Assembly: GCA_020345645.1 (NCBI GenBank)
Contig: CP070765.1
Span: forward strand, 610,440-651,749
Origin: Candidatus Bathyarchaeota archaeon
GTDB lineage: Archaea > Thermoproteota > Bathyarchaeia > Bathyarchaeales > SOJC01
Direction: 5' to 3'
DNA length: 41,310 nt
The position numbers and the translations under genes are program-made. Below are positions 2,443-25,461 of this stretch, one piece after another (within the stretch, counting starts at the first letter, position 1; each line of letters starts with the position of its first letter). The notes beneath the pieces are model-generated. The model saw only the letters and a program-made list of their open reading frames with translations, did no database searches and was not told the origin of the DNA.

Positions 2443-3645
2443 CTAGATTAAGTCTAGCTTCTTTCCTCCTTCCTCAAAGGCACATATGGCACGGTCTAAC
2501 TGCTCTTTTGTGTGTTTGGTGCATAGCTGTGCTCGGATTCGGGCTTTATCTCGTGCGACCATCGGGAAGACGATGGGGAGGGCGAAGATGCCTTTCTGCC
2601 AGATGAAGTCCGCTAATTCCTTCGCCTTCTTACTCTCGCCACACATCACGGGAACGATGGGGGTTTCGCTGTTTCCTGTGTCGAAGCCGAGGTCCTGCAT
2701 CGCTGTCAGGAAGTACTCCCGGTTTTGCCACACCTGTTGTACGTGTTGCGGTTCTGTCTCTAGGACGTCGATGGCGGCTGTGCAGGCCGCGGCGACGCCG
2801 GGGGGGACCCCGCCACTGAGGAGCCAGCTTCGTGACTTGTTGTAAGCGAAGTTCCGCAGGTCTTCGCCGCCGGTGATGTGCCCTCCGATCACGCCGAAGG
2901 CTTTGGAGAAGGTGCCCATCTCCACGTGGACTTGATCTCGTCGTAAGTGGAAGTGGCTGACGATTCCACGCCCGTCTTCGCCCAGTACGCCTTCGCCATG
3001 CGCGTCGTCAACGTATACTCCGGCTCCAGCTTCTTCGGCGAGTTTAGCGATTTCAGGTAACGGAGCTAGATCGCCATCCATGCTGAAGACGCCGTCGGTT
3101 AGGATCCAGATATGGTTGTATGGTGGGTCATGTTTAGCTACTTCATCCATGACGCGAGCGAGGTCTTCAACGTCTTTGTGTTTGAAGATTGCACGATCCG
3201 CCTTCGTTAATCGGACACCGTCGATGATGGAACCGTGGTTAAGTTCGTCGGAGACGAAGAGGTCGCCTCTCCCGCAGAGCTGTGGGACGAGCCCTTCGTT
3301 CGCCATGAACCCAGTCTGGTACGTTAGGGAGGCTGGGGCGTTCTTAAAACGGGCTAGCCGTCGGTCCAGTTCTTCGTGGACGGTCATGTTACCTGAAATG
3401 GAACGGTCGCTTCCAGCTCCGGCGCCGTATTTCTTCGTCGCTTCCAACATGGCGTCGACGACTTTTGGGTGGGTGGAGAGGTTAAGGTAGTTGTTAGCAC
3501 ACAGCAGAATCACTTGTCTGCCGTCGACCTTGCAGACGGGTTCATTCGCCGTCTGCAGCTCTTTGAGCTCCCAGTTCAAGTGTTCGCGGACGAGCCGCCG
3601 ATATTCTTCCCCTAAATACTTGGTCGGGTGGCGCGTTGCCTTCAA
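2443..3645 (-). CDS. kbl: 2-amino-3-ketobutyrate CoA ligase (glycine C-acetyltransferase)
   Basis: This is an alpha-oxoamine synthase fold with CANNYLNLSTHP, DDAHGEG and the PLP-lysine block TFSKAFG. It sits directly downstream of a threonine dehydrogenase gene. The start codon appears to be TTG. Confidence 0.85.
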   Translation of the reverse strand: MKATRHPTKYLGEEYRRLVREHLNWELKELQTANEPVCKVDGRQVILLCANNYLNLSTHPKVVDAMLEATKKYGAGAGSDRSISGNMTVHEELDRRLARFKNAPASLTYQTGFMANEGLVPQLCGRGDLFVSDELNHGSIIDGVRLTKADRAIFKHKDVEDLARVMDEVAKHDPPYNHIWILTDGVFSMDGDLAPLPEIAKLAEEAGAGVYVDDAHGEGVLGEDGRGIVSHFHLRRDQVHVEMGTFSKAFGVIGGHITGGEDLRNFAYNKSRSWLLSGGVPPGVAAACTAAIDVLETEPQHVQQVWQNREYFLTAMQDLGFDTGNSETPIVPVMCGESKKAKELADFIWQKGIFALPIVFPMVARDKARIRAQLCTKHTKEQLDRAICAFEEGGKKLDLI

Positions 3646-3713
3646 TCTTGAGACCTCACGTTGAATTGCTGCATTCTATTCAAGACTCCGTTCTCTTAAC
3701 CTTTATCGCCATA

Positions 3714-4766
3714 CTACTTGGGTTTTATAACGACTTTCGCGGCTTTCTTCGACTCGATAAGGTTGATGCCGTCCTCAATCTTACTCATCGGTAGCTGATG
3801 CGTGATGACGGAAGCGATTTTCTTCTGGAAAACCAAGTCTGATAACAGCCCTTTCACTTGATGCCACGTCTGATAGATGCGTCTGCCTGAGATACCGTAA
3901 ATGTGAGCGGCTTTGAAGATGATGGCTTCATTGAGGTTCAAGGTCACGGGGGAATCGAAGATTCCTAAGAGGGAGACACGACCGCCACTTCTCAAGATTT
4001 CGAAGCTCTGACGTAGGGCAGCTGCGGCACCAGACATCTCCAAGACGACGTCGACGCCTTCTCCATCAGTCTCGTCTAAGATGATCTGGGGAAGCTGGGC
4101 TCCTTCTTTCTTGGCACTGAGTACGAGGTCTGCACCCATCGTGTGCGCCAGCTCCATACGTACTTGGTTCAAGCCACCAGCAGTCGCGTAGACTCGGGTC
4201 GCCCCGAGTTTCCGGAGTACAGCGATCGCCATCAATCCAATGGGACCGCAACCTATCACTGCCGCGGTCTTCCCCGCGATGTCTTCAACATTGTCTTTTG
4301 GGAGAGCCGCTTGCACAGCATTACCGAGGGGTTCTTGGATGGAAGCGACTTCGGGAGGGATGTTCGGGTCGTTCTTCCACGCGTTCTGGGCAGGCAGAGC
4401 GATGTACTCAGCGAAGCACCCATCGGTGTCGACTCCTAAAATCTTGAGGTTCCGGCAGATATGCATCCGATCTGTCTGGCAAAGGGTGCAGGTGCCATCG
4501 TATATGTGGGTCTCCGCGGACACTGCGTCGCCTTCATTAAATCCAGTGACCCCGGGTCCGAGTTCCACGATTTCTCCGCTGAACTCGTGCCCGAAGACGA
4601 ATGGAAGCTTCTTAATCCTTGTCTGGGCCCATTCATTCCACTCCCAGATGTGGAGATCTGTTCCGCAGATTGAAGCGACTTTAACTTTAACTAAAACCTC
4701 GTCTCGCTTCAACGTCGGAAGGGTTGTAGTAGTGATTTCAGCACCTGGACCTCGCTTCGTCTTCAT
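3714..4766 (-). CDS. tdh: L-threonine 3-dehydrogenase (Zn-dependent MDR family)
   Basis: Motifs seen are the Zn-ADH motif GHEFSGEIVELG, the catalytic C..H pattern ASICGTDLHIW and the Rossmann motif VIGCGPIGL. The gene is paired with kbl. The start is placed at MKTKRG; the ORF stays open up to 4817, so upstream starts (4778, 4817) are possible. Confidence 0.85.
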   Translation of the reverse strand: MKTKRGPGAEITTTTLPTLKRDEVLVKVKVASICGTDLHIWEWNEWAQTRIKKLPFVFGHEFSGEIVELGPGVTGFNEGDAVSAETHIYDGTCTLCQTDRMHICRNLKILGVDTDGCFAEYIALPAQNAWKNDPNIPPEVASIQEPLGNAVQAALPKDNVEDIAGKTAAVIGCGPIGLMAIAVLRKLGATRVYATAGGLNQVRMELAHTMGADLVLSAKKEGAQLPQIILDETDGEGVDVVLEMSGAAAALRQSFEILRSGGRVSLLGIFDSPVTLNLNEAIIFKAAHIYGISGRRIYQTWHQVKGLLSDLVFQKKIASVITHQLPMSKIEDGINLIESKKAAKVVIKPK

Positions 4767-4913
4767 TATGGCAAACATGTTCATGCACGACACGACGGAA
4801 CGTGAGAGTGTAATCATTCAATTCATTGAGTAAAAAGGTTATCCAAGAGCATAGGTGTGCGAAAAAGATATGACCGTTAAGGATGGGCGTAATAACCGAC
4901 GGATTGCAGAATC

Positions 4914-6044
4914 ATGAAAGTGGGCTTCCTCGTCAATCCCATTGCTGGCATGGGTGGGAAGGTCGGTCTAAAGGGCACTGACGGCGTCGTTGAGCGAGCT
5001 CTTGAACTCGGAGCAACGTCAATAGCGCCTCAGAGGGGAATCGAGTTCCTGAAACACCTAACGCGGCTAGGTGTGAACGAGAAGATCGAGGTGGTTTCAT
5101 GCCCTGCGGAGATGGGATTCAGTGAATTGACTACTGTAGGATTCGACGCCTCTATCCTACCGATGGATGTCCCGAAAGACTCAACGGCGAAGGACACCAA
5201 AACCGCAGTGGAACTGATGGTCAGACGAGGCGTCGATCTCATCGTCTTCGTCGGAGGAGATGGAACCGCCCGAGACATCATGGATGCAGTCCTCGAAGTA
5301 AGTACGTACGAAGACGCACCTCTGGTCCTCGGAGTCCCAGCAGGGGTAAAGATGTACAGCGGCATCTTCGCCACCAATCCCACGGATGCTGCACACGTAG
5401 TGGAAGCAGTCGTAAATGGCGAGGCACAGACTACGGACTTCGAGATCATCGACGCTGACGAGGAAACCACTCGAGAGGATCACTTCACCATCCGCCTCTG
5501 CGGTCTACTGAAGGGTCCCTTGATGCCGACGTTTATCCAGGGAAGTAAACAGGTCTCGTCAGAAGCCACCGACGAACATGAAAACCAGATGGCGACAGCT
5601 AGGTTCGCGATGGAAGAGCTGGACCGCGACGCGGTTCTACTGCTTTGCCCAGGCACAACCGTACGATGCGTTGCAGATCTTCTTGGCGTAGCGAAGACGT
5701 TACTGGGCGTAGACGTCTACTGGAAGGGAACCCTCCGTAAAGACGTGAACGAAACAGCGATTCGCGAGGCGATTGCGGGGAAAAAGCGTGTACAGATCAT
5801 CGTCTCACCGATCGGTAGACAGGGAATCCTGTTCGGCAGAGGAAACCAGCAGGTTAGTCCCAACATCATACGTAGCGTCGGTAAGGAGAACATTTTCGTC
5901 GTAGCAACCAAAGCGAAGATTCGTGGCATCGAAGGGGGGAAACTGAGAGTCGATACAGGAGACGAGGACTTGGATAAGCAGTTGGGCGGGTTCATTCGGG
6001 TGATGACGGACTACCGCGAATGGCGGCTAATGCCGATCGAATAG
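4914..6044 (+). CDS. ATP-NAD kinase-like family protein (COG3199-type predicted NAD/diacylglycerol kinase fold)
   Basis: The GGDGT signature (VFVGGDGTARDI) is present, the N-terminus reads NPIAGMGGKVGLKGTDG, and the product is 376 aa. Confidence 0.65.
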   Translation: MKVGFLVNPIAGMGGKVGLKGTDGVVERALELGATSIAPQRGIEFLKHLTRLGVNEKIEVVSCPAEMGFSELTTVGFDASILPMDVPKDSTAKDTKTAVELMVRRGVDLIVFVGGDGTARDIMDAVLEVSTYEDAPLVLGVPAGVKMYSGIFATNPTDAAHVVEAVVNGEAQTTDFEIIDADEETTREDHFTIRLCGLLKGPLMPTFIQGSKQVSSEATDEHENQMATARFAMEELDRDAVLLLCPGTTVRCVADLLGVAKTLLGVDVYWKGTLRKDVNETAIREAIAGKKRVQIIVSPIGRQGILFGRGNQQVSPNIIRSVGKENIFVVATKAKIRGIEGGKLRVDTGDEDLDKQLGGFIRVMTDYREWRLMPIE

Positions 6045-9015: not shown

Positions 9016-9534
9016 ATGACTGAGCTCAGAACTCGAACCTTGATTATTGCCGAAGCTGTAGTTTTTGTAGCACTTGCGACTGCATTAAGTTTCGTGAAAT
9101 TATTCAGCCTTCCTCAAGGAGGGTCGGTTACAGCGGCATCAATGATCCCTCTTCTTTGGCTCTCCCTTAGAAGAGGTGCCAAGATCGGGATCTTCGTATG
9201 TGTGGTCTATGGCTTAATTCAGTTGATGGTGGAACCCTTCGTCGTTCATCCAGTACAGTTCCTCTTGGACTATCCGATTGCATTTGGGGCTCTTGGGTTA
9301 GCAGGTCTCTTCCAGAACCGACCCTTTATCGGGATTAACATCGGGATCCTGGGACGGTTCCTCGCCCATTTCGCGTCAGGAGTGATCTTTTTTTCAGAGT
9401 GGGCACCTGAAGGGATGTCGTCATTCGCATACTCAGCCATCTATAATGGAAGCTACTTGCTACCTGAATTAGCCATCAGCATCTACCTCACCTACTTAGT
9501 TGTAGAGACGAAAGCACTAAAGATGTACATGTAA
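9016..9534 (+). CDS. thiT: Thiamine transporter ThiT (ECF-type S component)
   Basis: Strong block similarity to ThiT: LLWLSLRRGAKIG, LLDYPIAFGALGLAGLF, HFASGVIFFSEWA, AYSAIYNG. The product is 172 aa with 6 TM segments and is preceded by a TPP riboswitch. Confidence 0.9.
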   Translation: MTELRTRTLIIAEAVVFVALATALSFVKLFSLPQGGSVTAASMIPLLWLSLRRGAKIGIFVCVVYGLIQLMVEPFVVHPVQFLLDYPIAFGALGLAGLFQNRPFIGINIGILGRFLAHFASGVIFFSEWAPEGMSSFAYSAIYNGSYLLPELAISIYLTYLVVETKALKMYM

Positions 9535-9585
9535 GAACAGGATTTACTAGGACTTCAGACTACCAGCATAGTTGTGCATCGAGAT

Positions 9586-10635
9586 ATGGGCAAACTCCTT
9601 GACGAAGACCTGCGTCGATTACTGAAGACTATAAAGAAACATCCGAAGACGGTAGTCCCTCCTCAACTAGGATTCGACTCAGGCGTCCACGAGCTTGATG
9701 ATAAGCTGCTACTCGTTGTTTCGACCGATCCCTGTGTCAACGTGCCTGAAGCATGGTTCGGTTGGCTGTTAGTGAATTATGCTGCTTCCGACATCGCAGT
9801 CTTTGGTGCCAACCCACAATTCTGTGCAATCACCCTATTGGGTCCATCATCAACGGAGTCAGAGCACTTTGTGAGAATAATGAAACAGGTAGCCGCGGCA
9901 ACTGAGGAGTTGCGGATGGGTATTGTCACAGGGCACACAGGGACCTACAATGGGCTATCTACGATGTTAGGAGTCTGTACAGCGTATGGCATAGTTCCTA
10001 AACATAGATTGATTACTCCAGGAGGAGCCGTGGTTGGTGACCAGATTATCTGTACCAAAAGCATCGGGTTAGAGACCGTGGTGAACTTCACTCTGTCCCA
10101 GCAGGCTGTAGCCAAAAGCTTGTTCGGTCCAGAAAGAACGCGAAAGCTGAGAACAATGGTGGATCAGCAGACGTGTGTCAAAGAGGCGCAACTTCTTAGC
10201 AGTCTTCAAGGAGTGCACGCGATGCATGATGCGACTGAGGGAGGGTTGGTGGCAGCGTTGAATGAGATGGCGGGGAATGCAGGGCTCGGGTTCAGGATAA
10301 ATCTCCAACGATTACCGATATCAGAGGAACTCACAATTCTTCAAAAGCACTTAATGTTATCGGAGACAGAGGTTCTGTCAACCTCTTCTACTGGCACGTT
10401 ATTAGTAGCACTCTCGCCAGAGGAAGCGGGGAATGCACTCCATCGATTGGAGCAAGCAGGGTTAGCAGCAAGGAGTATCGGGGTTTTTACCGAAGACCAA
10501 GATAGGGAGATTTTCGATGAACAACAGCGTAGAGACTTCCCTCACCGAGCCTTAGATCCATATTCAACGATCGTTAAAATCCAATCTAGAGCACTGACGA
10601 TTCCTAGAGAAGCTGGAGAAGAGCAGGAAACATAA
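9586..10635 (+). CDS. AIR-synthase-related protein (PurM/ThiL/HypE superfamily)
   Basis: The N-terminus reads MGKL..DL..LL followed by LLVVSTDPCV, then the GHTG.. block and a C-terminal AIRS_C-like domain (HAMHDATEGGL). It lies 40-50 nt downstream of thiT on the same strand. An alternative GTG start is at 9574. Confidence 0.7.
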   Translation: MGKLLDEDLRRLLKTIKKHPKTVVPPQLGFDSGVHELDDKLLLVVSTDPCVNVPEAWFGWLLVNYAASDIAVFGANPQFCAITLLGPSSTESEHFVRIMKQVAAATEELRMGIVTGHTGTYNGLSTMLGVCTAYGIVPKHRLITPGGAVVGDQIICTKSIGLETVVNFTLSQQAVAKSLFGPERTRKLRTMVDQQTCVKEAQLLSSLQGVHAMHDATEGGLVAALNEMAGNAGLGFRINLQRLPISEELTILQKHLMLSETEVLSTSSTGTLLVALSPEEAGNALHRLEQAGLAARSIGVFTEDQDREIFDEQQRRDFPHRALDPYSTIVKIQSRALTIPREAGEEQET

Positions 10636-15796: not shown

Positions 15797-15874
15797 GCCC
15801 TGGTAGTATAGTCCGGTCTAGTATAAGCGGCTGTCGCCCGCTCGACCCGGGTTCAAATCCCGGCCAGGGCGCCA
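15797..15874 (+). tRNA. tRNA-Asp (anticodon GUC), genomically encoded CCA
   Basis: I folded the cloverleaf by hand. The acceptor is GCCCTGG/CCAGGGC and the D stem is GTAT/GTAT (with G-U pairs). The anticodon stem is AGCGG/CCGCT with loop CTGTCGC, giving anticodon GTC. The T arm is CCGGG-TTCAAAT-CCCGG, the discriminator is G, and CCA follows. The body is 75 nt with no intron. Confidence 0.93.
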
Positions 15875-15941
15875 TTAAACTCTGTGGATGCAGGTCGAAT
15901 TATATCTAAGATCACATCCATTGAATAGGGTGAGTTGTTCC

Positions 15942-17534
15942 ATGGCTGAGTTTCGTTTGCAGAGTTTCATAGACGTAGCCGATAGAATCCAAGATAAGGC
16001 TTCCAAGGAAGGAAGACTCATCTCGAACCCGTCTGACGAAGAATTAAGGTCAATTGCTGAGAAAGAACCAGGAGTCAAGACGACGGTTTATGGCAGCTTG
16101 GTCGTCGAGAGTGAACCTACGTCCCGAGCTGCGATGTTCACGAAGAACAGTGTAGATTTTAAATTTGGTGAAGACGAACGTCAGTTACTAGTCAAATGTG
16201 AAGAGATCCTGGCAGAAAAACGACTGATTTCAATAGATCGTACTGTCGGCAACAGAGAGAGTAAGACCATAGTTCGGCTGATTATTCCAGACGCCTTTTC
16301 TCACGTCGGCTATGGAGGTAGAAACCTCTTTCTTCCAACGACGGCGAAGAACCCACGACCTAACTACCACATTATATTCTTTGCCGACGACAAATTTGAA
16401 ACCAACAAATCCAAGGTGCTCCCAGAGAAAGACATCACAATACGGCTGGCATTCCTGCCGGATGGCAGAGTTGTTAAAGTCGTCAGAAACAGCAACTACA
16501 TCGGGGAATACAAGAAAGGCGTCTTCGCCGCCGAAGACTGGACCGCGAAGACCACGAGAGGCGGCATCTTTCTCCACGCGGGCTGCCGAGAAGACTACCT
16601 GCAATCGGTTCACGGAGACTACCAGAAGGTCAGAACGTTACTCCTCGCCTTAAGTGCAAATGGCAAAACGACTTTGACCTGTCGCATCCTAGCAAGAAAG
16701 AGAAAGGAACAGTCGTGGCTCGTTCAGGATGATGGAGGAACCCTCATGCCAACTGGTTCATTCCACGGGTTCGAAGCAGGCGGAATCTTCGTCAAAACCG
16801 AAGACGTGACACCTGGCGAACAACGGGAAATATTCTTCGGTTTACTGAAGCCTAACACCTTCATCGAAAATGTCCATGTCACACCGGAGGGTGACCTCGA
16901 CTTCCACGCTTTAGAACGAACGTCAAACGGACGAGCCGTCATCCCACGAAGAGACATCATGCATGCGAGTCCTTACATCGATGTCGACCGAGTTGACAAC
17001 ATGATCCTGATCACGAGAGGCCCCTTAATTCCAGCCCTCTCCAAACTCACTCTTGAACAAGCAGTCGCGTTGATGATTCTAGGACAAGCCATGGAGTCAT
17101 CGGCAGGTGACCCGACCCAAGCTGGATCCATCGCAAGTCAGTTCTTCTACGACCCATTTGTCGCCGGAGACCGAGCAACTCACACGAACCGGTTCTATCA
17201 AACCCTGAAAGGCCTACCCCACATCGAGTACTTCCTACTCAACACAGGCGGAATCGGCGAGGGGCAACGGTACAAGGAAATCACAGTAGAACACACAATG
17301 GCGATCTTGGACTCCCTACTGAGAGGCGGATTGGAGGATTGGATATCTTCTCCCAGCGGGTTTCAAGTTCCAAAAGCTGTCAGACTAGTAGATGACATCT
17401 ACTTCCACCCAGAAAACCTCTATTCAAACGAGGAGTTCGAAGCAAAACAGACGAAATTAAACTACTTTAGGCAGAAAACCATTTCCAAGATCAGCGGTCT
17501 GCTCCTGCCTGAAATCTCCACGGTCTTTGGTTAA
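15942..17534 (+). CDS. pckA: Phosphoenolpyruvate carboxykinase (ATP)-like protein, divergent
   Basis: The layout resembles PckA: a kinase-1a-like loop LALSANGKTTLT (versus GLSGTGKTTLS), a following ..DDGG.. block (versus IGDDEHGW), and a late LLNTGGIGEG block (versus NTGWNG). The start is set at MAEFRL; the ORF is open from 15888. Confidence 0.7.
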   Translation: MAEFRLQSFIDVADRIQDKASKEGRLISNPSDEELRSIAEKEPGVKTTVYGSLVVESEPTSRAAMFTKNSVDFKFGEDERQLLVKCEEILAEKRLISIDRTVGNRESKTIVRLIIPDAFSHVGYGGRNLFLPTTAKNPRPNYHIIFFADDKFETNKSKVLPEKDITIRLAFLPDGRVVKVVRNSNYIGEYKKGVFAAEDWTAKTTRGGIFLHAGCREDYLQSVHGDYQKVRTLLLALSANGKTTLTCRILARKRKEQSWLVQDDGGTLMPTGSFHGFEAGGIFVKTEDVTPGEQREIFFGLLKPNTFIENVHVTPEGDLDFHALERTSNGRAVIPRRDIMHASPYIDVDRVDNMILITRGPLIPALSKLTLEQAVALMILGQAMESSAGDPTQAGSIASQFFYDPFVAGDRATHTNRFYQTLKGLPHIEYFLLNTGGIGEGQRYKEITVEHTMAILDSLLRGGLEDWISSPSGFQVPKAVRLVDDIYFHPENLYSNEEFEAKQTKLNYFRQKTISKISGLLLPEISTVFG

Positions 17535-18846: not shown

Positions 18847-18932
18847 CCATAAGGTTTGGCACTGGATTGCTAACTTCTTTGCAGGTGCACACTGGCATAA
18901 AGTTGAACTGGTAGAACGATGAAGTGGTAGAT

Positions 18933-19292
18933 ATGGACTTCAAGGTCATATTCGGCTCAATTGGCGCCATCATCTGTTTCTTTTTCGGTGTAATCTTCGC
19001 GTTAGCTTCAGGGGCGTCTGGTGCAGACACGTCTTCAAGGCTAGCCGTCTCAGCAATTCTATTCATTATGGGTTGCGGAGTAGTGGTGATCCTATATGTG
19101 ATCTCCAAGAAGCCTGCTAGAATCATTCACCAAGTAGAACTCTCCGGAGAAATGAAGGCGGTCCCCATTCAATGTCCAAGCTGTGGAGGTTCAATCGACC
19201 CTCAACGCATAAAGATCAAGGACGGAGTGCCCTACGCAACGTGCAGATACTGCGGAAAGACGGTGGAGGTCGCAGAGGAGCCGAAATGGTGA
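18933..19292 (+). CDS. Membrane protein with 2 TM helices and a C-terminal zinc ribbon
   Basis: Two hydrophobic helices are followed by CPSCGG...(20 aa)...CRYCGK (CxxC...CxxC). The stop overlaps the next gene's ATG (ATGGTGA), implying translational coupling. An alternative GTG start is at 18924. Confidence 0.55.
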   Translation: MDFKVIFGSIGAIICFFFGVIFALASGASGADTSSRLAVSAILFIMGCGVVVILYVISKKPARIIHQVELSGEMKAVPIQCPSCGGSIDPQRIKIKDGVPYATCRYCGKTVEVAEEPKW

Positions 19293-20908
19293 CTACCAAA
19301 AAGAGTCTACTCTTGCTCTCCTTGAGCTTAATCGTTGTTCTCGGACCGATCAATGCAGAAGCTCAGAGTCTCATCTACCACGTCAACCACGAATGGGTGA
19401 AGATCTGGATCAACCAAGATGGCACAATCGACGTTCTCTACGACATTGAAGTTGCGTGTGATCAAGGGACCCTACATTGGTTCGAGATCGGACAGCCCAA
19501 CGATGACTTCATCATAGGTGATGCGTTCGACGAATCCGGAACTAGGTTGCCGACATCGGATGAAAGCTCTCGAGGCGACTACAGGGTCCGAGTGGACGTT
19601 GAAGACATTGATGCTGGTGAAAGCACACGCTTCACCTTGACAACGAACGTCGGACGGATGGTCTGGGAAGACGTGGAGAATCCGGGCAATGTAGGCATGA
19701 AGTTTACACCTTCATGGTTCTCCGTAAACGTGGGCAACTTACGGGTTCGGATTGTCATGCCAGAAGGAGTGACCGAGGTAGACGTGAAAACGCTGACGGG
19801 CGTTGAATGGGACAACGCAGACTATGTAGATGGCCCCTTTGCAGTCTACTGGGAAAGAGAGGATCTTTCTCCGAACGTTAAATTCACGTTTGGCGTTTCG
19901 TTTCCAGAGCAGTATGTTGAACACTATGAAGTGCAGCCGGATTTCATAGGGAAGTATGGACTCTGGATTGGAGTCTTCATCGTACTCGTCTTAATTCTCG
20001 TCGGAGTCGTCTTAGCTTCCTTCCAGAAGAAGCCCTACTTGAAGCCGGTGATGAGTATGGAAGCTTTAGGCGTCAGAAGAGGCTTGACAGCTGTAGAAGC
20101 AGCGTGCCTTCTGGATCTCAAACCAGAGATGATTGTTACGACGATCTTATACAGCCTCTTGAAGAAGAGAGCGGTGTGGGTAACAGCGACTGAGCCTTCG
20201 GTAAGGTTAAGAGTGATAGAGAAATTCAAAGAGACACCTCAAAGTTCAACGGTAAACCCGCTTCGATACTACGAGATCGACTTCTTGAAAGCAGTAAAGA
20301 AGGACGGGACCTTGGATGAGCAGCTTTTAGCCGAGACGATCTCGTTTCTCGACCGCAGTGTCGAAGAGAAACTTCACGGGTATTGCAGAAAGGATACTGT
20401 AGATTACTATTCACGGGTCGTGGAGAAAGTGTGGACAGAAGTTGCGCAAGCGGAAACATCGAAGCTGTCCTCGGAGCTCTTCGACGAACACCTCCTCTGG
20501 CTCCTTCTGGACCCTAACCGCCAAAAGAAGACTGAGAAAGCATTTTCAAATCGAGTATTTGAGCCCTCATCCCTCTGGTTCTGGTACTGGTTCGGATATC
20601 GACACTACCATCCACGACCAGAATTTGAACCAAACGTGGATACACCGGCAAAATCAGGTCAACCACCGAAGATACCAGGTGCAGAGTTCGCGAATAACAT
20701 TGCGACAGCCGTCGAAAAGACGTCGAATAACATCGTTAACAACTTAGAGAAGTTCGCAAACGCCATACTCCCTGCATCCCCACCGCCTAAAACATCGCGG
20801 CAGCCAACGCATCATCGCTCAAACTGTGTCTGCGCATGCGCTGCGTGCGCATGTGCATGTGCATGCGTCTCCTGTGCCTGCGCCTGTGCAGGTGGCGGGG
20901 CAGGATGA
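19286..20908 (+). CDS. Membrane protein with DUF2207-like architecture ending in a Cys-Ala repeat tail (NCVCACAACACACACVSCACACAGGGAG)
   Basis: A signal peptide (MVTTKKSLLLLSLSLIVVLGPINAEAQS) leads into an extracytoplasmic domain of about 230 aa. One TM helix (LWIGVFIVLVLILVGVVLASF) follows, then a cytoplasmic region of about 270 aa with RGLTAVEAACLLDL... The last 27 residues contain 10 Cys. The start is chosen at the ATG overlapping the upstream stop; the ORF is open from 19172. Confidence 0.7.
   Translation: MVTTKKSLLLLSLSLIVVLGPINAEAQSLIYHVNHEWVKIWINQDGTIDVLYDIEVACDQGTLHWFEIGQPNDDFIIGDAFDESGTRLPTSDESSRGDYRVRVDVEDIDAGESTRFTLTTNVGRMVWEDVENPGNVGMKFTPSWFSVNVGNLRVRIVMPEGVTEVDVKTLTGVEWDNADYVDGPFAVYWEREDLSPNVKFTFGVSFPEQYVEHYEVQPDFIGKYGLWIGVFIVLVLILVGVVLASFQKKPYLKPVMSMEALGVRRGLTAVEAACLLDLKPEMIVTTILYSLLKKRAVWVTATEPSVRLRVIEKFKETPQSSTVNPLRYYEIDFLKAVKKDGTLDEQLLAETISFLDRSVEEKLHGYCRKDTVDYYSRVVEKVWTEVAQAETSKLSSELFDEHLLWLLLDPNRQKKTEKAFSNRVFEPSSLWFWYWFGYRHYHPRPEFEPNVDTPAKSGQPPKIPGAEFANNIATAVEKTSNNIVNNLEKFANAILPASPPPKTSRQPTHHRSNCVCACAACACACACVSCACACAGGGAG
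20825..20890 (+). repeat. Imperfect (TGY-GCN)n hexanucleotide-type repeat, alternating purine/pyrimidine, encoding the (Cys-Ala)n tail
   Basis: The codons are tgt gtc tgc gca tgc gct gcg tgc gca tgt gca tgt gca tgc gtc tcc tgt gcc tgc gcc tgt gca. Third positions vary, so the repeat is kept at the peptide level rather than being a clean DNA microsatellite. Confidence 0.85.
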
Positions 20909-20924
20909 TGCAGGAGGAATTAGA

Positions 20925-22271
20925 TTGAGCTTCCTACGGAAGATCTTCAAATACCCCAAGATCCCAACTGGTCGCTACACGTACAGAGGAGTGGGAGAAC
21001 TCGCGAAGATGGCTCTGCAACTCCGAGTGGAACCCAACCATCAAGGATTATTAGTGATCAACGCCAACACCGTCCTGTATCTCAATGAAACAGCTACAGT
21101 CCACGCCTACTTCTTGATGCAGGGAATGCCCATCGATGAAGCTGTGGAAAACGTTCAGAGGATGTACCATGTGAAGAAGGCTACAGCGCGATCTGAACAC
21201 GAGAAGCTCATCTTCACCATCAGCACCCTCGCGCAAACCGAGAAAGTCTGCCCAGTCTCCTACCTCGACGTGAAACAAGTAGAACCGTTCACCCAACCAG
21301 TCTCCGCCCCCCTCCGAATGGACCTCGCCCTGACTTTCCGATGCCAAAACAAGTGCGTCCACTGCTACGCGGGAGGTTCCCACGAAACGGCTGAACTCTC
21401 GACACACGAGTGGAAAACCATCATAACGAAGCTCGGAGAAATCGGGGTATTCATCGTCACCTTTACGGGTGGTGAACCGACCCTTCGAGAAGACTTACCA
21501 GACCTTTTAACATTTGCCCAGGAGAACGGCGTCGTCACAGGGCTAATCACCAACGGAAGAAGACTCGCTGACCGAAATTACGTGCAGAGACTCGGAGGAG
21601 CCGGATTGGATTTCGTGCAGATTACGCTAGAGTCGCATAAGGCCACAGTTCATAACAGAATCACAGGCGTGAAAGGAAGTTGGACTGAGACCGTCAGAGG
21701 AATTAAAAACGCGGTAGAAACGGAGATCTATGTCACCACAAACACTACGCTGAACATGCAGAACGCGGACGGATTCCTAGAAACCATAGATTTCATCAAG
21801 GATTTGGGCGTAGCCGCGTTTGGCTGCAACAGCCTCATATATTCTGGAAAAGGAGCCGAGGTCAGCGATCAAATTGCCCTTCAAACAGAAAGCCTAGAAG
21901 AACTGCTGCGTGACATCAAAGAAAAAGCAGCCCACCTAGGACTAAAGTTCCTTTGGTATACACCTACCCAATATTGTCAGTTAGATCCAGTGAAGTTAGG
22001 GCTTGGAGTGAAATCCTGCACTGCAGCTCAAGTCAACATGTGTATTGCTCCGAACGGAGACGTGTATCCTTGCCAGAGTTACTTTGAGAGCCTAGGAAGC
22101 ATCCTCAAAGAGAAATGGATAACAATCTGGAATCACCCGCTGGCAAAAAGAATTAGAAACCGAGAGTACATCGAGCCAAAGTGTGAAGAGTGCCCGCAAC
22201 TCGCAGTATGTGGAGGAGGATGCCCCTTGGAACTCGAGTATAGAAAATACTTGTGCAGTTCAACTAATTGA
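20925..22271 (+). CDS. Radical SAM / SPASM-domain enzyme with an N-terminal PqqD-like RRE domain (peptide/protein-modifying maturase type)
   Basis: The radical SAM cluster motif is CQNKCVHCYAG (CxxxCxxC, 21342-21365) and the GGEPTL SAM motif is present. The C-terminal SPASM cysteines are C..CTAAQVNMCIAPNGDVYPC...CEECPQLAVCGGGCP. The N-terminal segment LQLRVEPNHQGLLVINANTVLYLNETATVHAYFL..GMPIDEAVENVQRMY resembles PqqD. The start is uncertain: TTG 20925 follows a GGAGG, with alternatives GTG 20892, GTG 20826 and ATG 21009. Confidence 0.85.
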   Translation: MSFLRKIFKYPKIPTGRYTYRGVGELAKMALQLRVEPNHQGLLVINANTVLYLNETATVHAYFLMQGMPIDEAVENVQRMYHVKKATARSEHEKLIFTISTLAQTEKVCPVSYLDVKQVEPFTQPVSAPLRMDLALTFRCQNKCVHCYAGGSHETAELSTHEWKTIITKLGEIGVFIVTFTGGEPTLREDLPDLLTFAQENGVVTGLITNGRRLADRNYVQRLGGAGLDFVQITLESHKATVHNRITGVKGSWTETVRGIKNAVETEIYVTTNTTLNMQNADGFLETIDFIKDLGVAAFGCNSLIYSGKGAEVSDQIALQTESLEELLRDIKEKAAHLGLKFLWYTPTQYCQLDPVKLGLGVKSCTAAQVNMCIAPNGDVYPCQSYFESLGSILKEKWITIWNHPLAKRIRNREYIEPKCEECPQLAVCGGGCPLELEYRKYLCSSTN

Positions 22272-22394
22272 GATAAGTACGTGTTTCACGAAGCTGCCTC
22301 ACTACACAGAGAGAACGTCGGGGATGGAGGCGTCTCTTCAAACGTGCGTTTAAATATGCGTCTTAGGTCCATCATCGGTAGGAGAATCAACCAA

Positions 22395-22505
22395 ATGCCA
22401 AATTGGGTATGTGAAGAATGTAAAACTGAGTACCAAAGCAGGTGCCGCATGGCAGAATGCTCCAACTGCGGAGCCCCCAAAGAAAAGCACAAAAAGAAAG
22501 CTTAA
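22395..22505 (+). CDS. 36-aa zinc-ribbon micro-protein with a Lys-rich tail (MPNWVCEECKTEYQSRCRMAECSNCGAPKEKHKKKA)
   Basis: The CxxC...CxxC knuckles are present. TTTAAATA lies about 45 nt upstream and TAGGAG about 10 nt upstream of the ATG. The ORF is open from 22281, but that N-terminal extension looks non-coding. Confidence 0.45.
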   Translation: MPNWVCEECKTEYQSRCRMAECSNCGAPKEKHKKKA

Positions 22506-23480: not shown

Positions 23481-24377
23481 ATGTCTGAGACGAAGCCCCC
23501 GCCAACTGGAATAAACTCTACACCAAAGAGTCGGGTGAAATTTACCAACTTACAGAAGATCCTGTACCCTGGCCTTAGAGTCGCAAAATACCAAGTTGTC
23601 GAGTACTATCTCAACGTAGCTTCCCGAATGCTGCGTTTTCTTGCAGGAAGACCAGTATCAATGTACAGGTTTCCAGACGGAGTCGGCGAGGCAGGATTCT
23701 ACGAAAAAGACGCACCGAAAGGAAAACCGTTCTGGGTAAAAACCTTCAGCCGGTTCTCTGAAACCGCCAACCGAACACTGGACTACATAGTCTGTGAAGA
23801 CACTGAGACACTCGCTTGGCTCGCAAACCTCGCAGCACTAGAAATTAACATCACCCTCTCCACCATCGAGTCTTATGGTAAACCAGACATGGTTCTCTTT
23901 GACATTGACCCAGAGCCCCCAGCAGGATTCAATGACGCAGTAGAAGTGGCACGCCATCTGAACGAGAAACTGGATCTACTTGGATTCAAATGCTATATCA
24001 AAACCTCCGGGAAAAAAGGGTTACATGTCGCTCTTCCCATCGCAAAGAAGTACACGTTCAGGCAGACTCGGGCGTTCGTCCACCAGATGGGGAGAATCCT
24101 CGGAAAAGAATTCGACCTTGTCGTCTCAGAGTTCTCTCGAACAAAGGACCGAGGGACTGTCTTCGTCGACTACATGCAGAACGTTCAGGGGAAAACGATG
24201 GTATGTCCTTACAGTCTGCGAGCGACGAAGGAAGCATCCGTCTCAACCCCTCTCGAGTGGAGAGAGGTGAAAAAAGGGCTCATCCCTGAAGACCTGAATA
24301 TCTTCAGCGTCGCAAAACGTAAAACCGATCCCTGGAAAGGGTTTTTCGAGAACCAGCAGACCTTAGACTTCACTTAG
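23481..24377 (+). CDS. LigD-type NHEJ polymerase/primase domain protein (stand-alone PolDom, AEP superfamily)
   Basis: Seen are FTNLQKILYP...Y, the catalytic DxD in VLFDIDPEP, SGxxGxH in KTSGKKGLHVALP, and VDYMQNVQGKTMVCPYSLRA. The product is 298 aa. Confidence 0.88.
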   Translation: MSETKPPPTGINSTPKSRVKFTNLQKILYPGLRVAKYQVVEYYLNVASRMLRFLAGRPVSMYRFPDGVGEAGFYEKDAPKGKPFWVKTFSRFSETANRTLDYIVCEDTETLAWLANLAALEINITLSTIESYGKPDMVLFDIDPEPPAGFNDAVEVARHLNEKLDLLGFKCYIKTSGKKGLHVALPIAKKYTFRQTRAFVHQMGRILGKEFDLVVSEFSRTKDRGTVFVDYMQNVQGKTMVCPYSLRATKEASVSTPLEWREVKKGLIPEDLNIFSVAKRKTDPWKGFFENQQTLDFT

Positions 24378-24396
24378 AGAAGAGGATGGCAACGCG

Positions 24397-25461
24397 GTGA
24401 AACTCTACAAGCCCATGCTCCCTAAGAAAGTGAAGAGTCCGTTTTCGTCTGAGGACTGGGTTTTCGAGCTCCAATGGGGCGGGATAAGAGCAATCACGTA
24501 CATCTCCTCGGAAGTTAACATCCGAAGCTCAGACCAGCAAGAGTTGAAAGACTGTTTTCCCGAATTAGAAGAACTGCTGACGCTCCCAGCATCAACAGTC
24601 CTAGACGGGGAAATCGTTATCTTGAAAGATGGAAAGACTGATCAGCGAGCACTCGAAAATAGACTGAAAACACCTATGGAGAATCGCAACGTAGCAACAG
24701 CGAGTTCTCCCCCAACATACATTGTCTTCGATGTTCTCGAAAAAGCCGGCGAATCGCTCGTTGACAAACCGCTGATGCTGCGAAAGCAGATTTTGCAGAG
24801 AATGGTGCAAGGACTCCGATACACCATACCCTCCATCTTCGCAGAGGGAAACGGTGAGACCTACTTTGAAGCAGCCGTGAAAAGCGGGTTCACCAACATC
24901 ATCGGGAAGGAGAAGAACAGTAAATACGAATCAGGCTTTACCAGCGAGAAGTGGTTAGAAATACGTAACGATCAGCAGCCTCAGAAAGAAACCGAGTCGC
25001 CGCTGCAGGAGTATGTACGAAAGAGGGATTTTGGTAGGACAAGCGAACCGAGAGGAGATGAAACGATAGATGAAGCTCCGAGATTCGTTATCCAAGAGCA
25101 TCAGGCCAGGAGTCTTCACTATGACTTTCGTCTATCGCGTGATGGAGTTCTCAAGAGTTGGGCAGTTCCAAAAGGTGTGCCATTGCAGCCGGGAATACGG
25201 AGACTCGCTGTGGAAACAGAAGACCACCCACTTGAATATGGCATGTTTGAGGGCGTTATCCCTAAAGGAGAATATGGTGCGGGAATTGTGAAGATCTGGG
25301 ACAAAGGATCCTATCGACTGAAGATCTGGCACGATGACAAGATCGAGTTCTATTTAGATGGTGAACGAGTCAACGGCATGTACGCGTTGGTAAAACTGAA
25401 GAAGTACAGCCAGCGGAAGCAGGACCAGAATCAATGGCTCCTCATCAGAATGAAGGGTTGA
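24397..25461 (+). CDS. Fusion of a degenerate ATP-dependent DNA ligase nucleotidyltransferase domain (no OB fold) with a LigD 3'-phosphoesterase (PE) domain
   Basis: The C-terminal part reads FVIQEHQARSLHYDFRLSRDGVLKSWAVPKGVP...VETEDHPLEY..FEGVIPKGEYGAGIV, which is the LigD PE domain. The N-terminal roughly 195 aa align to ligase motifs I-V, but motif I is ELQWGGIR instead of ExKWDGxR. The start codon is GTG. Confidence 0.8.
   Translation: MKLYKPMLPKKVKSPFSSEDWVFELQWGGIRAITYISSEVNIRSSDQQELKDCFPELEELLTLPASTVLDGEIVILKDGKTDQRALENRLKTPMENRNVATASSPPTYIVFDVLEKAGESLVDKPLMLRKQILQRMVQGLRYTIPSIFAEGNGETYFEAAVKSGFTNIIGKEKNSKYESGFTSEKWLEIRNDQQPQKETESPLQEYVRKRDFGRTSEPRGDETIDEAPRFVIQEHQARSLHYDFRLSRDGVLKSWAVPKGVPLQPGIRRLAVETEDHPLEYGMFEGVIPKGEYGAGIVKIWDKGSYRLKIWHDDKIEFYLDGERVNGMYALVKLKKYSQRKQDQNQWLLIRMKG

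Follow-up and report, generated by a model that had tools for sequence, protein, structure and literature searches.

A 41,310-nt stretch of the genome of a Candidatus Bathyarchaeota archaeon (contig CP070765.1, positions 610,440 to 651,749; hereafter the window) carries a compact cassette in which a membrane protein ending in a Cys-Ala tail is encoded beside a radical S-adenosylmethionine (SAM) enzyme with a peptide-recognition domain (RRE) and a SPASM domain. The cassette comprises three genes, a zinc-ribbon membrane protein (gene A), the Cys-Ala-tailed membrane protein (gene B) and the RRE-radical SAM-SPASM enzyme (gene C), and this gene order is conserved in both Bacteria and Archaea. Small peptides and cofactors are the known products of RRE-bearing radical SAM/SPASM enzymes, whereas here machinery of that kind is linked with a full-length membrane protein, at its tail. 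We consider the odds somewhat better than even that gene C modifies the tail of gene B in place, for example by putative thioether crosslinking of its cysteines. The names that databases give to homologues agree with a Bathyarchaeia origin of the window. The open reading frame (ORF) list and the raw sequence place all three genes on the forward strand of the window between positions 18933 and 22271:

18933-19292, + strand: gene A, about 119 aa from an ATG at 18933 (ORF), with two transmembrane (TM) helices, a cytoplasmic C4 zinc ribbon and the C-terminus EEPKW
19286-20908, + strand: gene B, a type-I membrane protein of 540 aa that bears the Cys-Ala tail (ORF)
20825-20905, + strand: the Cys-Ala tail, gene B residues 514-540, CVCACAACACACACVSCACACAGGGAG, the proposed substrate (homologue alignment; disordered in the structural model)
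20925-22271, + strand: gene C, the RRE-radical SAM-SPASM enzyme, 448 aa (TTG start, GGAGG at 20913-20917)

The Cys-Ala block is among the most strictly conserved short motifs one could expect. In the window it places 10 Cys within 21-22 residues in a 3+4+3 arrangement, and a degenerate pattern for the tail occurs there once, against 0 occurrences in 100 shuffles. The gene B family is large, with more than 1,566 homologous clusters at 90% identity and at least 595 cluster representatives at 50% identity in an exhaustive search, and the names of a few dozen proteins from metagenome-assembled genomes place its members in Bathyarchaeia, Methanocella, Chloroflexota and Zixibacteria. Among the 120 closest homologues, which share 53–88% overall identity, the tail C[VA]CACA.CAC[AV]CACVSCACACA[GS]GG is kept in 120/120. 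Representatives at only 27–49% identity retain CACACACAGCACACAGGGR or related forms, and every full-length relative among the 50%-identity representatives has the block. Conservation of the tail among orthologues, on which the initial annotation had made its proposal depend, thus extends in near-invariant form down to ~27% identity. The block takes several forms, among them type A of Bathyarchaeia, with 3+4+3 Cys, type B of bacteria (Chloroflexota/Anaerolineae, Zixibacteria and others), GGGCACACACAGCACACAGGGR, and the Methanocella form, CACACACVSCACACACAGGGGCT. When 58 sequences from Archaea and Bacteria are aligned, no other segment of gene B is as conserved as the block (0.78 vs. 0.35–0.60 elsewhere), and the body of the protein is itself well conserved.

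Conservation acts on the peptide. Across 25 type A and 68 type B tails the amino acids are fixed while both Cys, all four Ala and all six Arg codons are used freely, and this saturation of synonymous third positions points to selection on the amino acid sequence and not on a DNA repeat. The Ala residues between the cysteines are likewise invariant from Bacteria to Archaea, as would be expected if Ala takes part in the chemistry or must fit an active site, and as would not be expected of a mere spacer in a metal site. The position of the block is less constrained. In several members (L030, L031, L065, L081 from a human gut metagenome, L084, P0270 and P0298) it does not stand at the extreme C-terminus and is followed either by ...AGC and a short CPxC segment or by a domain of ~90 aa. 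Such internal blocks make chemistry that needs a free C-terminus unlikely, and MftC-like decarboxylation and CaaX-like processing are disfavored on these grounds.

An unbiased scan of metagenome contigs, made with a degenerate DNA pattern that describes only the tail, shows that tail and enzyme occur together. The scan gave at least 120 loci, and among the matches listed, to which the counts over tail loci refer, 108 have true tails that end ORFs of the gene B family and the remainder are microsatellite noise. Pairing was counted over the 92 tail loci that extend 400 nt or more past the tail. An orthologue of the radical SAM enzyme starts between −50 and +300 nt from the tail stop codon in 70/92 of these, lies 0.3–2 kb downstream in 6/92 and is present somewhere in the locus in 85/92, which upholds the co-occurrence that the initial annotation had proposed. 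Adjacency also holds in reverse: look-ups that started from the enzyme found the small protein and the tail-bearing protein directly upstream in 3/3 cases. Homologue look-ups in archaea and bacteria gave the same order of small protein, tail protein and radical SAM enzyme in varied surroundings, and since the flanking genes vary between loci, the pairing does not reflect general synteny. The same cassette is present in a cultured methanogen, Methanocella sp. CWC-04. A scan of genome contigs with a single protein, an insensitive query, added one close relative (L002), and one bacterial locus has a split or different radical SAM gene ~1 kb from the tail gene.

Tail and enzyme remain paired in four layouts: the A-B-C order of the window, an expanded form, a compact form in which the radical SAM gene precedes a shorter tail protein (a human gut sample supplies one example) and the Methanocella form. 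Short tail proteins of 330–424 aa have the enzyme gene upstream of the tail gene. In the expanded bacterial layout (L128, L103, L060, L032, L053), gene A is followed by a first radical SAM gene, a ~220-aa protein ending CPxxxCPGRRAPY, a second radical SAM gene, two tandem tail proteins of 600–750 aa (CACACAGCACACACAGGGR) and a class I methyltransferase. Class I SAM methyltransferases occur with the cassette in at least 24 loci. No protease, exporter or transporter is conserved with the cassette across the tail loci listed, and the tail itself is confined to the gene B family, with 103 of the 108 loci clustering together and no short stand-alone peptide bearing the motif in any of the 108. Proteases do occur locally: TldD/PmbA genes (2767-5539) lie just upstream and an Rce1-like (CPBP) gene (9028-10014) just downstream of one archaeal cassette (L006), and a further Rce1-like gene lies ~4 kb beyond a bacterial cassette (L011, 14368-15063). 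These genes are not conserved across loci and would matter if the tail is processed.

Gene C combines three domains that mark RRE-dependent radical SAM/SPASM peptide maturases:

20970-21236, + strand: PqqD-like RRE domain, residues 16-104 (four strands then three helices in the AlphaFold2 model, confidence score pLDDT ~70–90)
21342-21365, + strand: CX3CX2C radical SAM motif, C140 QNK C144 VH C147 (invariant alignment columns; Pfam Radical_SAM)
22017-22256, + strand: SPASM domain, residues ~365-444, with Cys 365, 373, 383, 420, 423, 429, 433 and 444 (Pfam; all invariant)

The CxxxCxxC motif and the full SPASM domain that the initial annotation had read from the sequence are both present, with Radical_SAM (PF04055) scoring 79.8 bits against a cut-off of 29.5 over the motif CQNKCVHC, SPASM (PF13186) scoring 40.5 against 21.5, and the cysteines of both invariant. 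The PqqD-like assignment of the N-terminal domain is firm at the level of the family. PqqD is the top Pfam match, below threshold, in 8/9 close homologues (best E 0.0092). Of 20 diverse orthologues from bacteria and archaea, PF05402 matches 17 (best E 1.2e-07), and one orthologue exceeds the cut-off (26.3 bits vs. 23.4). Searches of the Protein Data Bank with the N-terminal domain of close homologues gave noise, and signal emerged only with a profile built from diverse bacterial and archaeal orthologues, which matches the RRE of the lasso-peptide protein TfuB1 (6jx3_B, E 2.5e-06). Between the RRE and the radical SAM domain, a near-invariant Cys-Pro (C109-P110, 21249-21254) recurs in Bacteria and Archaea, in the context ...VCPVS... 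and, in bacteria, ...ACPVHEL..., and this Cys may be an extra ligand or an active-site residue.

The closest relatives of gene C act on peptides, and it belongs to no named equivalog family. The best Foldseek matches of its AlphaFold2 model, near full length, are the RRE-bearing maturases SkfB and SuiB, followed by PqqE and CteB, with anSME also among the matches, and a sequence profile finds SkfB (1.8e-24), SuiB (2e-18) and PqqE (1.8e-16). Gene C falls below every NCBIfam equivalog cut-off (NirJ2, AhbD, PqqE, MftC, SkfB, AlbA, GeoRSP, ScmE and others), in every case far below (in bits vs. cut-off, NirJ2 144/500, PqqE 126.6/381, MftC 121.9/265, SkfB 89.4/300). Placement in a clade with another established substrate, which the initial annotation had named as fatal to its proposal, was therefore not found.

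The start of gene C had been placed inside or immediately after the tail-coding repeat. The reading frame is in fact open from a GTG at 20826, inside the repeat, but among the 120 best homologues 84 have a length of 448 aa and start with MSFLRK, which identifies the TTG at 20925 as the real start, 17 nt past the gene B stop codon and with GGAGG 7 nt upstream. A start within the tail is ruled out by the homologue starts and by the Shine-Dalgarno sequence before this TTG. Gene callers often extend the enzyme into the tail, giving products of 460–480 aa with Arg/Leu/Cys-rich junk N-termini (P0121, P0148, P0153 and L003 7583-9001), because the tail-coding repeat lacks stop codons in the frame of the enzyme (window 20826-20924). 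This extension is an annotation artefact that masks a short intergenic gap.

Gene B has the anatomy of a type-I membrane protein, in agreement with the signal peptide, extracytoplasmic domain, single TM helix and Cys-tailed cytoplasmic domain first read from its ~540-aa ORF:

19286-19366, + strand: signal peptide, residues 1-27, MVTTKKSLLLLSLSLIVVLGPINAEAQ (sequence reading; modelled helix 3-19), presumably cleaved after AEA
19373-19906, + strand: extracytoplasmic beta-sandwich, residues 30-207, with a ribophorin I/Ost1-like fold (AlphaFold pLDDT >90; Foldseek)
19943-20029, + strand: single TM helix, residues 220-248 (AlphaFold2 model)
20090-20767, + strand: cytoplasmic domain, residues 269-494 (AlphaFold2 secondary structure and pLDDT; conservation profile)

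The model has a mean pLDDT of 82.5, with residues 502-540 disordered. A basic stretch, QKKPYLKP, directly follows the TM helix, consistent with the positive-inside rule, and by predicted topology the tail would lie in the cytoplasm, within reach of a radical SAM enzyme. The cytoplasmic domain comprises a winged-helix-like unit, a helical bundle and two conserved helices (465-494) before the linker to the tail, and these two helices may serve as a leader-like recognition region and candidate docking site for the RRE. Outside the membrane, the beta-sandwich matches ribophorin I/Ost1 chains best (8b6l_O, 3.5e-10; 6s7o_E; 6c26_1) and also matches the N-terminal domains of M1 aminopeptidases. As in ribophorin I/Ost1, an extracytoplasmic beta-sandwich is followed by a single TM helix, a resemblance of fold at 10–14% identity. 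The fold agrees with the database labels on a Methanocella homologue, which NCBI calls oligosaccharyltransferase (OST) subunit 1 and UniRef calls DUF2207. Gene B itself matches no Pfam or NCBIfam family. A DUF2207 match, for which the initial annotation had suggested a search, is absent from the window protein (PF09972/PF20990, no match at E up to 1) and appears in relatives as sub-threshold matches of the N-domain in 3/58 and of the C-domain in 4/58 (best E 0.0039).

Gene A matches the first member of the cluster as initially described, a zinc-ribbon protein with two TM helices whose stop codon overlaps the start codon of gene B, here within AAATGGTGA. Its ORF is open from a GTG at 18924, upstream of the ATG at 18933, and its zinc ribbon, CPSCG...CRYCG in the window (pattern CPxCG...CxYCG), lies 3′ of two hydrophobic helices and finds weak zinc-ribbon matches in profile libraries. 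In cassettes of archaea and bacteria, the small protein encoded upstream of the tail gene can be aligned with gene A and has the same invariant EEPKW terminus, and a gene A-like protein stands upstream in 32/33 type B and 12/14 type A loci with room for it. The junction of genes A and B reads AAATGGTRA in both domains of life (window 19275-19292; L001, L003, L006, L009, L133, L134). The Glu-Glu codons of gene A (GAGGAG) occupy the expected Shine-Dalgarno position for gene B, and the invariance of EEPKW may reflect dual coding for translational coupling, instead of or besides a function of the protein. Genes B and C are separated by 16 nt, and packing as tight as this gap and the A/B overlap leaves no space for a separate small precursor gene.

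The cluster was initially taken to have four members, the last being a 36-aa zinc-ribbon protein. All four ORFs are present on the forward strand, but the conserved cassette ends with gene C:

22395-22505, + strand: 36-aa zinc-ribbon ORF, 123 nt downstream of gene C, a neighbor outside the cassette

Genes 3′ of the enzyme vary between loci, and this ORF has no homologue downstream of the radical SAM gene in 130-odd related loci, the closest relative (L002) included, which rules it out as a cassette member.

Taken together, a peptide-recognition domain, relatives that crosslink Cys-rich peptides, an adjacent hyper-conserved Cys-Ala block and the lack of room for a precursor gene lead us to infer that the tail is the substrate, modified in place, and we also infer where the enzyme docks, the type of chemistry and the cellular role. 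The coupling of tail and enzyme put forward in the initial annotation is thus supported by conservation, adjacency and the RRE, together with the absence of a short separate precursor, while the size of the cluster and the start of the enzyme required correction. Under this model, membrane insertion of gene B would leave its ribophorin-I-like beta-sandwich on the outer side and place the helical domain and flexible tail on the inner side. Cytoplasmic gene C would dock, via its PqqD-like RRE, on a region of gene B upstream of the tail, and would draw on 5′-deoxyadenosyl radical chemistry, together with its SPASM clusters, in modifying the Cys-Ala block, which would stay attached to the protein. 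The most likely change would be the formation of several thioethers from Cys sulfur to carbon on neighboring Ala, Val or Ser residues, of sactionine or ranthionine type. Invariance of the Ala residues fits such bonds, since metal sites usually tolerate other small residues, and repeated short motifs that are each crosslinked are a familiar theme in ranthipeptides and related families. The product would be a rigid, crosslinked cytoplasmic appendage of a membrane protein and not a released peptide, against which the restriction of the motif to the gene B family and the absence of a conserved protease or exporter also argue. A bolder possibility, to which we give a minor share of belief, is that this appendage is a membrane-tethered ladder of radical-SAM-made Cys-Ala crosslinks (or a metallocluster built on it) that acts as a cytoplasmic redox, metal-handling or signaling module belonging to a ribophorin-like membrane protein. 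Such a ladder would be chemically equivalent to sactionine or lanthionine, made from unactivated Ala, and of an age that allows it to be common to Bathyarchaeia, methanogens and Chloroflexota.

Several observations weigh against modification of the tail in place. The enzyme gene lies upstream of the tail gene in 9/92 loci and is not seen in 7/92, those seven being short or truncated. The N-terminal domain of the window's own gene C has PqqD as its top Pfam match only below threshold (E 0.16), so for this copy the RRE that the initial annotation assigned is matched only weakly. The best NCBIfam scores of gene C, although far below cut-off, come from NirJ2 and AhbD, tetrapyrrole enzymes whose substrates are not peptides. 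A 540-aa membrane protein is also an unusual substrate for an RRE-dependent enzyme, and CxC-rich runs are classic metal ligands, so that a metal or Fe-S role is conceivable. Such a role is the main rival, in which the tail is a metallothionein-like metal or Fe-S module of 7–10 thiolates, laid out as a two- or three-strand ladder without covalent crosslinks. Variants of the same idea have the tail supply, receive or scaffold a cluster or electrons for the enzyme, or have the enzyme build or insert a metallocluster that the tail holds. The CxCxC spacing, which sets thiols on one face of a strand, the disorder of the tail in a ligand-free model, the four further cytoplasmic Cys contributed by gene A, the anaerobic lifestyle of all identified hosts, which are rich in Fe-S proteins, and the top NCBIfam scores being those of AhbD and NirJ, SPASM enzymes that are not peptide crosslinkers, all fit this rival. 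We nevertheless regard it as unlikely: Gly, Ser or Lys is usually tolerated between the Cys of metal sites while Ala is invariant here across domains of life, gene C bears a genuine peptide-binding RRE at the family level, and the structures nearest to gene C are peptide crosslinkers.

It is less probable still that the enzyme targets something else, such as gene A (its EEPKW end or zinc ribbon), a lipid or a small molecule, with gene B a mere membrane partner or regulator. Gene A is nearly as conserved in the cassette as the enzyme, with an invariant C-terminus, the best structural matches of gene C include the Lys-Trp crosslinker SuiB, and archaeal SPASM enzymes acting on membrane lipids exist (Gms, PMC11186832). 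Type D loci, however, hold the enzyme and the tail protein with gene A not seen, and the EEPKW codons (GAGGAGCCGAAATGG) do double duty, providing gene B with its Shine-Dalgarno sequence and start codon, a possible reason for their invariance. In Gms, the N-terminal domain is a six-helix domain and not an RRE, and the cassette occurs in Bacteria as well as Archaea, whose lipids differ; a Gms-like lipid enzyme is ruled out on domain architecture and distribution. We give slightly less credence again to gene B being an oversized precursor whose modified tail is cut off as a small Cys-rich RiPP (a peptide made on ribosomes and modified after translation), as in pyrroloquinoline quinone (PQQ), mycofactocin and SCIFF. 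The C-terminal position of the core recalls MftA, PqqA and SCIFF, and the TldD/PmbA and Rce1-like proteases flanking the L006 cassette, with the Rce1-like gene near the L011 cassette, could serve such processing. Yet among the matches listed no protease or exporter is conserved with the cassette and the tail stays on the gene B family (103/108 loci clustering, no stand-alone peptide); in some members the block is internal with ~90 aa after it, and the gene B body is well conserved. A translated microsatellite, or conservation at the nucleotide level through overlap with the enzyme gene or RNA structure, is the most remote reading and practically negligible. The tail DNA is indeed a degenerate (TGYGCN)n repeat and gene callers often extend the enzyme ORF into it, but third codon positions are fully randomized with the amino acids fixed, the true start of the enzyme lies past the tail stop codon, and genuine microsatellite matches in the metagenome scan look quite different. 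Free synonymous codon use refutes nucleotide-level conservation of the tail.

Modification of the tail in place would set this system apart from those it most resembles. SCIFF/ranthipeptide and sactipeptide systems (CteB, PapB, AlbA, SkfB, ThnB) likewise place an RRE-radical SAM-SPASM enzyme beside a Cys-rich C-terminal core, and gene C finds its best matches in sequence and structure among them and their kin, in SkfB, SuiB and CteB. Sactionine bonds onto Ala occur in thuricin CD. In those systems the substrate is a peptide of 30–60 aa, whereas here a 540-aa type-I membrane protein would offer its tail as substrate, with strict Cys-Ala alternation, no conserved protease or exporter, a single-copy, housekeeping-like cassette in Bathyarchaeia, Methanocella and Chloroflexota, and an enzyme that misses all NCBIfam maturase cut-offs by a wide margin. 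A short, separately encoded precursor with its usual protease or exporter, as RiPP-type maturases have, was not found among the tail loci listed, and the only Cys-rich candidate is the gene B tail. Judged by sequence, the system would work like an RRE-radical SAM-SPASM maturase with a Cys-rich core but without a short dedicated precursor or a named equivalog.

The nearest precedents with protein substrates are QhpD/QhpC and anSME, in which a SPASM enzyme targets Cys residues and leaves the protein whole and working. QhpC receives Cys-Asp/Glu thioethers from QhpD, and anSME turns Cys into formylglycine. Their substrates differ in being soluble or periplasmic subunits with unrelated motifs and without a Cys-Ala repeat, a membrane anchor or gene A. 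PqqE/PqqD and MftC/MftB share a PqqD-type RRE and a SPASM enzyme acting near the substrate C-terminus, and PqqE and MftC are among the best NCBIfam scores of gene C, whose N-terminal domain matches PF05402; their RRE is separate and their product a released cofactor, whereas here the RRE is fused and the block is sometimes internal. DUF2207 proteins and ribophorin I/Ost1 share the overall plan of gene B, in which a signal peptide and an extracytoplasmic beta-sandwich precede a TM helix and a cytoplasmic C-terminal part, and many DUF2207 proteins end in Gly-rich tails. Unlike DUF2207 members, gene B of the window has no Pfam match, and the cassette shows no link to an OST catalytic subunit. Metallothioneins and CxC metal sites share the high Cys-x-Cys density but not the fixed Ala, the fixed length and register, the fusion to a membrane protein or the position beside a radical SAM gene. 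Gms (GMGT synthase) has a six-helix N-terminal domain that forms a hydrophobic lipid pocket (PMC11186832), in place of which gene C has an RRE, and the cassette of gene C is also found in Bacteria. A defense system is ruled out by PADLOC, where genes A and B have no match and gene C shows only generic radical SAM core similarity to viperins.

The pairing of tail and radical SAM enzyme is not described in Pfam-A, NCBIfam 20.0, PADLOC or the full-text papers searched, in which the tail motif strings matched DNA primers. One of the papers on DUF2207 calls the family one of unknown function, and no full-text paper searched combines it with radical SAM. There is a real chance that the product is something new. 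The cassette is widespread in anaerobic archaea and bacteria, including abundant uncultured sediment lineages (Bathyarchaeia, Anaerolineae). If the enzyme modifies the tail, RiPP-type chemistry would extend to the maturation of membrane proteins, might reveal a new crosslink or a new protein-derived cofactor, and would give a first functional handle on the large uncharacterized group of DUF2207/ribophorin-like prokaryotic proteins. The hypothesis is directly testable, as substrate, enzyme and a cultured host (Methanocella sp. CWC-04) are all defined.

Other features of the window lie apart from the cassette. A thiamine pyrophosphate (TPP) riboswitch (RF00059, 8921-9032, + strand; 62.1 bits, gathering score 54.3) lies directly upstream of the ORF at 9016-9534 and overlaps its start, in an apparent Bathyarchaeia genome. 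Two adjacent ORFs at 23481-25461 (+ strand, 298 and 354 aa) are, by eye, presumably a LigD-type polymerase/primase and an ATP-dependent ligase. A tRNA gene at 15797-15871 (+ strand) ends 17 nt before the first start codon of a phosphoenolpyruvate carboxykinase-like ORF (15888-17534, PF01293), whose real start is probably further downstream.

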